In this document: positions 6,498-27,722 of the stretch, piece by piece
How the letters are laid out: every line of letters starts with the position of its first letter
How positions within the stretch are numbered: position 1 is the stretch's first letter
Translations under genes and position numbers: made by a program
Notes under the pieces: generated by a model
Told to the model about the DNA's origin: nothing
Database searches by the model: none
What the model saw: only the letters and a program-made list of their open reading frames with translations
Assembly: GCA_038889235.1 (NCBI GenBank)
Contig: JAWAHN010000001.1
Span: forward strand, 944,499-976,498
Length of the DNA: 32,000 bases
Direction: 5' to 3'
Origin: Candidatus Jordarchaeales archaeon
GTDB lineage: Archaea > Asgardarchaeota > Jordiarchaeia > Jordiarchaeales > Freyrarchaeaceae

Positions 6498-6513
6498 GTG
6501 CGCCCATACTGGT
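6498..6513 (-). other. tRNA intron 3 (16 nt, variable arm)
   Basis: ACCAGTATGGGCGCAC. Helix GCGT/GCGC, bulges AG|A and AC|G, inner stem CCA/TGG. Confidence 0.8.
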
Positions 6514-6543
6514 CTACGCGATGGGCTCCTGAGGCCCACCCCT

Positions 6544-6559
6544 ATGGTCATCCACGCCT
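6544..6559 (-). other. tRNA intron 2 (16 nt, position 21/22)
   Basis: AGGCGTGGATGACCAT. Helix GGTC/GACC, bulges AA|A and AT|A. Confidence 0.75.
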
Positions 6560-6564
6560 TTGAC

Positions 6565-6582
6565 TTTGCCTGCAGGACGCAT
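6565..6582 (-). other. tRNA intron 1 (18 nt, position 18/19)
   Basis: ATGCGTCCTGCAGGCAAA. Helix AGCC/GGCA (3 of 4 paired), bulges AG|A and AA|G, inner stem TGC/GCA. Confidence 0.8.
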
Positions 6583-6620
6583 CTGGCTTGGGTACCCCCG
6601 CCCAACAATCAAAATTCCAT

Positions 6621-19060: not shown

Positions 19061-20213
19061 ATGTGGCGTGTTGTTCGCCCAGACTCGATTAACGTGTGGA
19101 ACGATGAACAAGTCTTAAATAGGCTCAAACGTTACTACGAGGTTTTTAACGGCAGAAAGTTCGCTAAAATGATTATTGCAAGTAGGGTGGAAGTTGACGA
19201 CGACCTTGAAGCTCCCACAAAGAAGCTTTGGGATCAACATAGAAAGGCTAGTGGAGTTTTTCGCCGCCTCCTTAAAGAAATAGACCAGGGCGACACGAAA
19301 TTAAATAACTTAGACACTCCCAAGACGTCTTACCTAGATTTAAAGGTGGAGCTTGCAAAGCGAATATTAACAAACTGCCATTTTTGTGAAAGAAGATGTG
19401 GTGTAAATAGGCTGGCGGGGGAGCGGGGCTTTTGCCAGCTTGATGCTAAAGCATATGTATCGTCAGCCTTCCTTCACCTCGGGGAAGAAGCTCCCTTGGT
19501 TCCTTCGGGCACAAACGCCAGAGGCCCCCTCTGGTGGTGCAATCTTTTTTAACATGTGCACTTTCAGGTGCGTCTTCTGCCAAAATCACGACATTTCAAC
19601 TGTAATAGATGGCGTCGAAGTCGATGGAGAAAAACTGGCTAGTTTAGCACGCCATTTAAAGAGGGAGGGGGCCCGAAACATAAACTATGTCGGCGGAGAC
19701 CCGACGCCATCGTCATACGTAATTCTTGATGCTATAAGAATTCTTGCACGTACAGGGACAAACATTGTTCAGCTATGGAACTCCAATTTCTACTGTAGCA
19801 AGGAGTTGATGACGCTGCTTTTCGACGTCATAGACTTCTGGCTTCCAGACTTCAAGTATGGCAACGATAATTGTGCAGAAACACTTTCAAAAGTTAGGAA
19901 GTACTTTGACGTAGTGTCTAGAAATCATAAGCTCGCATATGATGAAACCGTCGTAGAGGGTAGCTCGGGAATGATAATACGTCACCTAGTAATGCCTGGG
20001 CACATAGATTGTTGCACAAAGCCTATTCTAGAATGGATCGCTAAAAATACTCCATTAGCCCTTGTTAATGTAATGGCACAGTACCATCCCGACTATCTTG
20101 TTCCAAGGAGTCCTGAATACAAGGACATAAACCGTAGGGTAACCGCCAGGGAAATGAAGGAAGCCTATGATTACGCTGACGCACTAGGCCTATTGTGGAG
20201 GCCAGTTAGCTAA
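19061..20213 (+). CDS. pflX: PflX-like radical SAM protein, spliced: join(19061..19514,19543..20213), 374 aa
   Basis: CHFCERRCGVNR..G..GFC, HLGEEAPLVPSGT|IFF, CTFRCVFC, VGGDPTP, WNSNFY, DFKYGND, IIRHLVMPGH, NVMAQYHP. The two track ORFs join in frame after removing 28 nt. Confidence 0.88.
19515..19542 (+). other. BHB intron in mRNA (28 nt)
   Basis: Central helix GCAC/GTGC, bulges AA|A and AA|T, 9-bp inner hairpin, outer pairs G-C and G-U. Confidence 0.88.
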
Positions 20214-25355: not shown

Positions 25356-26498
25356 CTATATAAAAAGATATTCAGCACCTCCAGTTTTGCTCCGGGTTTT
25401 GAAAATTTCGCTCAAAACTTCTTCTATCAATTGCTGGTCTATTTTGTCTGCATTTTTTATGATTGCCCTATGGAACGCAGTTTTAAGCAATTTCTCCTTT
25501 AAATCTCTTCCAGAGAACCCTTCAGTTATAGAGGCTATTTTGTCGAAGTCACACTCAACTTTGAGGGGAATCTTCTTGGCGTACATCTCGAGAATCTGCC
25601 TTCTTTCCTCTAGCGATGGCAGCGTGAACTCGATTTCCTCCTCAAACCTGTTTCTAAGGGCCAAATCTAATAGCATTAAGTTGTTTGTGGCCCCGATGCA
25701 CACAACACCCGGTGTAAGCTCCAGCTTATCCATCTCTGCCAGGAGGGCGTTAACCACCTCAGTGACGTCGCCCCTTACACTTTGAAACCTTCTATCGAGC
25801 CCTATAGCATCTATCTCGTCTAAATATACGACACTTGGGGCTGCCTCTCTCGCTCTCCTGAAAAGCCTACTTATTTTACTCGCCGCATCACCTACGTGGG
25901 TGCCTATGAGTTCAGGCGATTTAACGAAGAAAAACTCTGCTCCAGCCTCATTAGCCAGTGCTTGTGCCGTCATCGTTTTTCCCGTTCCTGGAGGACCATA
26001 AAAGAGAATGATTCTAGGCGCCCAGTCACCAAAAGCTTCTGGGCTTTCTAAGTACTTTTTTATGATCATGCACTTTTCTTTAGCCCTTTGTTGTCCGACA
26101 ACATCCGCGAGTGTAATCTTGGGAAACCGCGTAGAGGGGCGTCTTTCCGCTTTCTTAATTACTTTAAATACAGTTTTATTGGTAATTTGCCCCTCACTAG
26201 GTGTCATGTCGACTATCTTGAAAGCGAAGTCTGGAAAAAGGGACCTATCAAAAAGCAGATCTCCCTTTTTGACGTATAATCCATCCCATTGTTCTCTGGC
26301 ATACGCTTGGAATACCTCAGGATTATCCACAGTCAATATAGTCTCTTTGTCCTCTCCTATTTCCCTTAAAGGGTATCCTAAAGGTTCAAGTTCTACTAGT
26401 ACTGCCTGTTTTATTCTCTCTTTGCTTTTCTTATGCTTTTTTAGACTTTTGTAGTATACTTTTTCCTTTTCTAATTCCTCATTAACCAAGTACTTCAC
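25356..26498 (-). CDS. Single-ring AAA ATPase (archaeal predicted-ATPase type with N-terminal EQW..LFD domain)
   Basis: GPPGTGKT, YLDEIDAI, GATN, RNRFEEEIEF, GFSGRD. GTG start overlaps the dnaG TGA. Confidence 0.88.
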   Translation of the reverse strand: MKYLVNEELEKEKVYYKSLKKHKKSKERIKQAVLVELEPLGYPLREIGEDKETILTVDNPEVFQAYAREQWDGLYVKKGDLLFDRSLFPDFAFKIVDMTPSEGQITNKTVFKVIKKAERRPSTRFPKITLADVVGQQRAKEKCMIIKKYLESPEAFGDWAPRIILFYGPPGTGKTMTAQALANEAGAEFFFVKSPELIGTHVGDAASKISRLFRRAREAAPSVVYLDEIDAIGLDRRFQSVRGDVTEVVNALLAEMDKLELTPGVVCIGATNNLMLLDLALRNRFEEEIEFTLPSLEERRQILEMYAKKIPLKVECDFDKIASITEGFSGRDLKEKLLKTAFHRAIIKNADKIDQQLIEEVLSEIFKTRSKTGGAEYLFI

Positions 26499-27722
26499 CC
26501 TTCTTGCTCCATCATTATTTCATTGAATTCCATCACTTTGAGCTCTGCCGGCCTTTTGACCACATTTTCCTGGCGAACCCCAACAATCCACCTAGCACCC
26601 TTTTCTTGCGAAATGTCAATAAGTCTCTGCGTAACTATCCCGTCGAGAACTATGCCCCCGATTTTCTCATTAATGTTTCGAAGGTAATCTGCTAGCTCCG
26701 ATACTTCGACTTCTGCTACCATGTTAAGGTTCTCTCCAAGTATCCTTGCCTTACCAGTGTTGAAAATTGCTTTCGAGTGCTCAATCACTTCCTGCGGAAC
26801 CCTGCTCACTTTCTTAACAACTTGTTGTACTTTCTTTTCTTCACGTTTCTTCATTTGCTCTTGCTCGACTATTTGCTCGACGGGTACCTTGTTGTTCAAT
26901 GCTTTCACTATCTCTTTGAAAGTAAGGTCTTCGACCTCACGGCCAGGGGGTGCTCTAGCAATATAATCTATGTCCGCGACCTGCAGTAACTCTTTCAAAA
27001 TTAAGTCGCCGCCTCTGTCTCCATCCAGAAAAGCTGTTACTACTTTTTTCTTACTCAGCTCGATTATCGTTTTCGGGATGCTGGTTCCCTCTACCGCTAT
27101 GACGTTCTTGAAGCCGTGTTTTAACATATTAAGCACGTCAGCTCTACCTTCAACTATGATGATTTCGTCTGACGAGTCTATTTCTGGGCCTGCGGGCAGC
27201 CCTTCTTTTCCATATTTGCATATCTCCGCCGTTCTTACCGCTTCAAGGACCTTGTTGACTATCTGTTCTGTCTCTGGGGAAACCTCCTCCGGCCACCTTC
27301 TTAGAATTTCAACGGCCCGCTCAATAATCCTCTTTCGTTTACTTTCTCTAACATCCTCTATAGATTCAAATGTCACTTTAGCGCTGCATGGCCCTATTCT
27401 GTCAATAGTTTCGAGTGCCGCTGCAAGGATGGCTGTCTCAACTTTATCAAGACTTGAAGGAACAATTATCTCCCCTATAGCTTTACCTCCATGATACTCA
27501 AGTTCTGCCTTTATACGCCCTATTCTCCCCGTGCGTTGAAGCTCTCTTAGATCCATGTCAGATCCGAGAAGCCCCTCCAATTTGCCTACGTGAGCCGCGA
27601 CCGGCTCCACGTAATTGGCCGAATATTGCTCCTATGACATCGGGCTTCTCGACAACACCATTTACCTCTATTTTTGCTTTTATAATGTATTTTATCGTGC
27701 CGATATCATTTCGATCAGCCAT
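26495..27722 (-). CDS. dnaG: Archaeal DnaG (TOPRIM primase-like, exosome-associated), spliced: join(27722..27615,27580..26495), 397 aa
   Basis: Exon 1 [36 protein letters not shown] follows SD GGAGGTGA. Exon 2 [23 protein letters not shown]...IVEGRADV...FLDGDRGG. The two parts are in different frames. Confidence 0.92.
27581..27614 (-). other. BHB-like intron in dnaG mRNA (34 nt)
   Basis: TTACGTGGAGCCGGTCGCGGCTCACGTAGGCAAA. Helix GGCC/GGCA, bulges AA|T and AA|T, 11-bp inner hairpin. Confidence 0.85.

Follow-up and report, generated by a model that had tools for sequence, protein, structure and literature searches.

Introduction

The route by which endonuclease-type introns enter genes is an unsolved question. 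A documented case in a protein-coding gene is the bulge-helix-bulge (BHB) intron that interrupts the cbf5 pre-mRNA in Crenarchaeota (PMC2738675). For tRNA genes, the transposing introns of Thermoproteales are described as families recurring at several sites (Fujishima 2010, as summarized in bioRxiv 10.64898/2026.10.13.758758). The same preprint, a 2026 census of tRNA introns in Asgard archaea, describes the 'Jordiarchaeia' as intron-rich, with repeated gains at the same positions. The census tested three routes of arrival (copying, mobile elements, reverse transcription), detected none and left the arrival route open; junction repeats and helix symmetry were not among its tests. Meanwhile, a 2025 paper claims that direct repeats lie near the splice sites of all intron classes (PMC11782384). 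Its archaeal-type sample comprises only four or five introns (four archaeal ones and one of fungal nuclear origin), and its window was very permissive, admitting repeats anywhere within 40 bp of each border.

Jordarchaeia carry dozens of endonuclease-type introns in essential protein genes, some of which differ between species of one genus. Here we analyze such an intron in the DNA primase gene dnaG of a Candidatus Jordarchaeales archaeon (genome G000), located in a 32,000-nt stretch of contig JAWAHN010000001.1 (hereafter the window). Like the cbf5 intron of Crenarchaeota, the dnaG intron is short, of endonuclease type, frame-disrupting and bounded by a BHB in a protein-coding gene, and it has been gained or lost among relatives. 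It differs in its host gene, in its Asgard lineage and in belonging to a set of at least 18 in a single genome, and it is known here from DNA alone. In common with the transposing introns of Thermoproteales, it has a BHB at a non-canonical site and a gain limited by the need to form the motif with the exon. Those families recur, whereas the dnaG hairpin has no second copy in the genome. Related introns at different host sites, the mark of a transposing family, were not found for dnaG, and likeness was seen only at the same dnaG site, between the families f1 and f4. The Asgard census covers tRNA genes only, in the same intron-rich class as the host of the dnaG intron.

The ends of the dnaG intron also recall the target-site duplications of IS elements and MITEs, in which a short direct repeat brackets a segment with inverted-repeat ends. 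Unlike those, the dnaG repeat is functionally required, as it forms helix and bulges, and it is imperfect, single-copy and without transposase context. No exact duplicate of the empty allele was found at dnaG or at the EF-2 gene, and the hairpin is not multicopy.

Results

A 34-nt BHB intron in dnaG

On the minus strand of the window, dnaG is split by a 34-nt BHB intron (27614–27581). The elements of the locus are as follows, in window coordinates.

27615–27722, minus strand: dnaG exon 1, 36 codons, ATG at 27722, 3' end ...GCA ATA TTC GGC CAA; NF003108 match
27581–27614, minus strand: the 34-nt BHB intron, first bases TTACGTG, last bases GGCAAA, +1 frame shift; from fold and BHB enumeration
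26495–27580, minus strand: dnaG exon 2, starting TTG GAG GGG, stop codon included; NF003108 match of 464 bits
27617–27620, minus strand: central helix, exon-side strand, 4 bp, GGCC, made of the Gly codon GGC and the C of the Gln codon CAA
27614–27616, minus strand: 5' bulge AAT, predicted cut between 27615 and 27614; from fold and BHB enumeration, AAN consensus
27587–27613, minus strand: inner hairpin, 6 bp plus 1-nt bulge plus 5 bp, 4-nt loop; no second copy in the genome
27583–27586, minus strand: central helix, intron-side strand, GGCA, with three Watson-Crick pairs and one G.A mismatch
27580–27582, minus strand: 3' bulge AAT, predicted cut between 27581 and 27580, with T27580 the first base of exon 2

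Residues 11–36 of exon 1 match positions 1–26 of the NCBIfam profile NF003108 (DNA primase DnaG). The exon 2 frame, 361 codons long, matches positions 28–279 from its residue 2 onward, with the score given above. Because the exons abut in the profile, both frames belong to one dnaG gene, which is broken exactly between a Gln codon and the next codon. This Gln lies in the conserved motif GQ(T/L)EGLLG. The predicted splice product reads ...AIFGQ/LEGLLG... in frame, and its exons adjoin at profile positions 26, 27 and 28.

In the RNAfold prediction for 81 nt around the break, GCC pairs with GGC, and the two bulges are AAU (5' strand) and AAAU (3' strand). The fold has a dG of −31 kcal/mol and a z of −3.5, which none of 200 shuffles equaled. 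The closing 11-bp (6+5) hairpin lies inside, and a short exon-exon helix lies outside. This outer helix is weak, with four pairs including a G.U and a 4-nt bulge in the minimum-energy fold. We enumerated canonical BHB geometries, placing the cuts after the second nucleotide of each 3-nt bulge. The sole in-frame solution was GGCC AA/T ... GGCA AA/T, which gives the product FGQ-L-EGLLG. Its GGCC:GGCA helix is of the relaxed class (three Watson-Crick pairs plus G.A). The locus thus combines a four-pair central helix, two 3-nt bulges and at least one flanking helix, and EndA is encoded in the genome. We infer from the DNA that the transcript is spliced at the predicted junction; the tRNA-splicing endonuclease and a ligase would have to excise the intron from the mRNA. 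The 30-mer of the spliced junction was not found in a search of metagenome contigs.

Two separate EndA-family genes (PF01974) score above the cut-off in the genome, with 111 and 77 bits.

G000:C1:1056473–1056727: EndA-family gene, open frame of 205 aa
G000:C3:444309–444566: EndA-family gene, open frame of 195 aa

An arrangement with two EndA genes is reported for broad-specificity (alpha-beta)2 endonucleases (PMC5829648). The two genes found here are consistent with a heteromeric, broad-specificity (alpha-beta)2 splicing endonuclease.

The junction repeat and the geometry of the BHB

A sequence-only reading of the window had pointed to a near-perfect direct repeat at the ends of the dnaG intron. 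Our analysis confirms the repeat and its coordinates. On the minus strand, the 5' junction GGCCAATT (27620–27613) lines up in register with the 3' junction GGCAAATT (27586–27579), offset by the 34 nt of the intron, and 7/8 bases agree, position 4 being the exception (C vs A). The naive chance of a 7/8 match at a fixed register is P ~4e-4. When the null is built to respect this genome's BHB constraints, P(≥7/8) comes to ~0.02 per intron.

The repeat consists of the self-complementary GGCC, the bulges of AAN consensus and one further T match. Since GGCC is self-complementary, the strand that pairs with it must look alike, and the intron strand therefore resembles a copy of the exon GGCC. The earlier reading had also stated that duplicating GGCC-AAT around a hairpin yields the central helix and both bulges, and this geometry is right. 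When a self-complementary tetramer plus AAN is repeated directly on either side of a hairpin, the result is a BHB, and cleavage of the two copies at AA/N gives back the single-copy sequence. At dnaG, what selection maintains is the pairing of the helix and not the repeat itself.

A long tandem duplication was ruled out as the origin of the dnaG intron, of which the interior copies exon 2 for at most 6 nt. A pattern search of the genome, allowing up to three mismatches, detected no further copies of the 25-nt hairpin core.

Two other introns in the window serve for comparison. At intron 3 of a tRNA gene we found the weaker echo that had been proposed (GCGT-A / GCGC-A), and the radical SAM intron indeed lacks a repeat (GCAC/GTGC).

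19515–19542, plus strand: comparison intron in a radical SAM gene, 28 nt, GCAC AA/A ... GTGC AA/T; helix not self-symmetric

We notice that the tRNA gene, at 6500–6600 on the minus strand, is class II-like and broken by three mini-introns, the third with the helix GCGT:GCGC. This gene was undetected by ARAGORN and Rfam.

The dnaG site in Asgard relatives

An intron occupies the same dnaG site in the families f1 (G000, G003, G004), f4 (G012, G023) and f9 (G046, G068, G017). The genome G030 has a different intron, 11 nt downstream of the shared site. The shared site is without an intron in the sister family f2 and in about fifteen other families. Among eight filled sequences, the helix strands are GGCC:GGCA (twice), GGTC:GACC, GGCC:GGTT (twice), GGGC:GCCT and GGCC:GGCT (twice). 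The helix is complete, with four pairs and with compensatory changes, in G004, G012, G046 and G068. In the eight-sequence alignment, columns 21–24 pair with columns 63–66 in 93.8% of cells, and one helix pair has changed on both sides twice; none of 500 shuffles was as good, and no slid register came close. RNAalifold recovers the same central helix unaided.

The junction repeat is present exactly in those dnaG introns with the exon tetramer GGCC, and it is absent with GGTC or GGGC. Given this restriction and the covarying helix, it is the pairing that is conserved, and the helix is not a scar. With the site filled in three families and compensatory changes in the helix, the dnaG intron is evidently not a fresh insertion.

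The sequence-only reading had expected intron-less dnaG genes to show an ancestral GGCCAA site, and this was not borne out. At 21 Asgard dnaG loci the frame is open through the site, with an unbroken GQTEGLLG. The DNA was read for 15 of these alleles, which are distant ones; they follow GGN CAR ACN GAR, one having GGCCAG and none GGCCAATT.

The first codon of exon 2 (27578–27580) is Leu (TTG/TTA) in three f1 genomes and Thr (ACN) in all other Asgard dnaG genes examined, including those of f4 and f9. The first two bases of the intron are also TT in G000 and G003. In f4, the first bases of the intron nearly copy the exon 2 codons for Thr-Glu, and the repeat extends to 9/12. The 5' arm of the hairpin has 9/10 bases in common between f1 and f4, a likeness that points to common descent or to transfer and away from independent insertion. 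By parsimony over G000, G003 and G004, the ancestral f1 state is GGCC-AA-T on both sides, which is a perfect repeat. The dnaG gene of G045 was considered as a case of within-genus intron polymorphism and rejected; the gene merely ends at a contig end.

Symmetry of the central helix in the genome-wide set

The catalogue of introns was built motif-free. The ORFs of two intron-poor Asgard genomes were aligned to this genome by tblastn, and frame jumps or skips of 8–220 nt in the alignments were taken as candidates. The queries were the whole of G011 and the first 1.2 Mb of G031, so that the catalogue is partial. After curation, it holds 18 protein-gene introns with canonical geometry and a gap-free protein alignment over the junction, plus 2 structure-only ones. 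A de novo genome-wide BHB scan with an ORF-joining filter was rejected. Frame-shifted decoys passed it as often as the real geometry, and its A-bulge candidates were no commoner than T-bulge ones, so that structure alone is unable to find introns.

Intron lengths peak sharply at 29 nt (15 alignment events; 8/18 catalogued introns). The first base of the two bulges is A in 18/20 and 20/20 (38/40 overall), and for the second base the counts of A are 12/20 and 17/20. AAN is accordingly the bulge consensus common to almost all catalogued introns of the genome.

An excess of junction repeats and of palindromic helices had been proposed as a test of intron birth by duplication. On the 18 introns, the expectation held, to a modest degree, for the central helix but failed for the bulges and the flanks. 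In-register bulge identity amounted to 34 matches against 33.5 expected when junctions were permuted among introns (P 0.48); the AAN consensus explains all of it, which is why it is no higher than between unrelated introns. Over 12–13 flanking positions there were 58 matches against 61.3 expected (P 0.71), so that in general there is no extended duplication.

On the other hand, the central helix showed 38/72 self-matches against 24.6 (sd 4.9) expected (P 0.005), in one set of 18 introns that includes the dnaG index case. In this null, outer and inner base pairs of different introns were recombined, keeping the position-specific pair composition. The central helix is the only compared region with excess identity. 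Three introns (dnaG, aIF5B and leuD-like) reach at least 7/8 junction matches, dnaG included, against an expectation of 0.4 for 18 introns. Such an excess of helix symmetry is not what structural constraint by itself predicts, and it is a residual signal that needs an explanation.

Young and old introns

Intron ages were called by searching G000–G010 with G011 proteins, eleven genomes in all. A 29-nt EF-2 intron, ACGT AG/A ... GCGT AA/A (G000:C1:445935–445964), is found in three of the four genomes of genus g1 (G000, G001, G003). G002 of the same genus lacks it, as do G004 and five f2 genomes. The unoccupied site in G002, ACGTAG-ACTT, is the spliced junction sequence. Compared with this target (ACGTAGA), the 3' copy (GCGTAAA) differs at 2/7 positions. 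A second EF-2 intron of ~208 nt, CCGG AC/T ... ACGG AA/A, lies 7 nt upstream and occurs only in G005 (L182:1779–2068). We notice that the TPGHVDF region of EF-2 hence holds two different introns in different lineages, each just after a palindromic tetramer (ACGT, CCGG).

The aIF5B intron (GGCA/GGCT) is limited to genus g1, and its exon tetramer GGCA is only near-palindromic. Empty aIF5B alleles have GGG or GGA where filled ones have GGC. Each of the five f1 genomes has the leuD-like intron, and G006 does not. Three genomes have the helix CCGG:CCGG. In G000 it is CTGG:CTGG, and there the repeat reaches 12/13 bases, since the exon helix is mirrored by the inner one. A hydrogenase intron (CGCG:CGCG) was seen in G000 alone, the Ala codon of relatives being GCT or GCC. 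For aIF2-gamma, genus g1 has the intron and f2 lacks it, with an ambiguous case in G004 (genus g2), where the match is continuous with one in-frame TGA. The helix of this intron is fully asymmetric (TGGC:GCCA). The old introns of cbf5 (CACT:GGTG) and pcm (CGCC:GGCG) are common to f1 and f2.

The mean in-register helix identity is ~2.8/4 for young introns and ~1.4/4 for old ones, over 11 introns, a number too small for a test and with aIF2-gamma as an exception. Young introns tend toward palindromic tetramers, within these small numbers and few lineages. At the wobble base within the helix, filled alleles of dnaG, aIF5B and hydrogenase have GGC or GCG, and empty ones mostly have GGA, GGG, GCT or GCC. 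Judging from these alleles, codon choice is coupled to the presence of the intron in the three genes.

In the leuD-like intron (L168:1501–1542), the same C-to-T change stands on both strands of the central helix in G000. This may be either a parallel change or a copy correction between the half-sites.

Discussion

Origin of the repeat

We consider it probable that the dnaG junction repeat is mainly a by-product of the BHB shape that the splicing enzyme needs. A self-complementary tetramer plus AA supplies one ready half of such a BHB, which may explain why the dnaG site and others like it are used time and again. As a clue to the birth of the intron, the repeat is weak evidence. The sequence-only reading had gone further and proposed that introns are born when a hairpin inserts at a palindromic tetramer and duplicates ~7 bases (GGCCAAT), so that the intron is spliceable from birth and the 7/8 repeat is a decayed scar. 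For dnaG we regard this as unlikely. The idea keeps its geometry, which works under the BHB rules set out in the methods of bioRxiv 10.64898/2026.10.13.758758, and it keeps the helix symmetry, with the enrichment and the three high-scoring introns reported above. It is also favored by the perfect repeat reconstructed for the f1 ancestor, by the extended repeat in f4, and by the lineage-restricted introns of EF-2, aIF5B, the leuD-like gene and G005 EF-2 at palindromic or near-palindromic tetramers. Moreover, local duplication was not among the routes covered when the published tRNA census found no route of arrival. Against the proposal, neither the free third base of the bulges nor the flanking sequence has excess identity, and the hairpin has a copy number of one. 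The genus-level EF-2 intron, compared with an empty allele of the same genus, is already off its target at two of seven positions, and the young aIF2-gamma intron has no helix symmetry at all. Empty alleles of aIF5B (GGG/GGA), hydrogenase (GCT/GCC) and dnaG (GGA) differ at the wobble base and leave no palindrome at the unoccupied site. Since the dnaG site is filled in three families, any scar there would be old and reshaped. Extending the idea to other genes, we can only tentatively suggest that some Asgard protein-gene BHB introns were born by a local duplication of ~6–13 nt at a self-complementary tetramer plus AA, spliceable at once. If so, the two-fold symmetry of the BHB could, with similar reserve, be both the reason for this birth route and its fossil.

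The symmetry might instead reflect a preference for certain sites without any duplication, which seems to us improbable. Introns would then persist in, or re-enter, exon sites that are ideal half-BHBs, namely a GC-rich self-complementary tetramer plus AA. It is just as improbable, as part of the same account, that the exon wobble base and the intron 3' end co-adapt after arrival, the repeat being a convergence of half-sites under a two-fold symmetric enzyme. In line with this, the GQ/TEG site of dnaG is used in three families, with the extra intron of G030 close by, and the two EF-2 introns 7 nt apart both sit at palindromic tetramers. The same tRNA positions are likewise used repeatedly (bioRxiv 10.64898/2026.10.13.758758). 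The wobble difference, with GGC or GCG in filled alleles where empty ones have GGA, GGG or GCT, fits site preference and duplication equally. However, preferences that act on each position independently are already built into the helix-shuffle null, and the lineages are small in number and not independent of each other. We know of no base-specific preference of EndA for the sequence of the helix. Coincidence would mean that one 7/8 match is simply to be expected among some twenty introns. The rate of ~0.02 per intron, or 0.4 among 18, and the choice of this case after it had been seen both lend it something. Yet 7/8 is attained by three introns and the excess of symmetry extends to the full set, and we think chance very unlikely indeed. 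By-product of structure stays our preferred reading of the dnaG repeat itself. This reading explains each component of the repeat, and the comparison among relatives shows selection on the pairing.

Under this preferred reading, direct repeats at BHB junctions are not to be taken as target-site duplications, and the useful rule would be that self-complementary tetramers plus AA are favored as intron sites. If the symmetry were a birth mark, it would reveal a simple DNA-level route to mRNA introns that work from the first day, in a prokaryote related to the eukaryotic ancestor.

Possible further interruptions in related genes

All cbf5 matches in f1 and f2 contain one in-frame TGA downstream of the known intron, which could be a recoded stop or an extra in-frame insert. 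In most f2 genomes (G005–G008, G010), the dnaG match is split near query residue 255, which suggests another interruption, in the C-terminal half of the gene, that is missing from f1.
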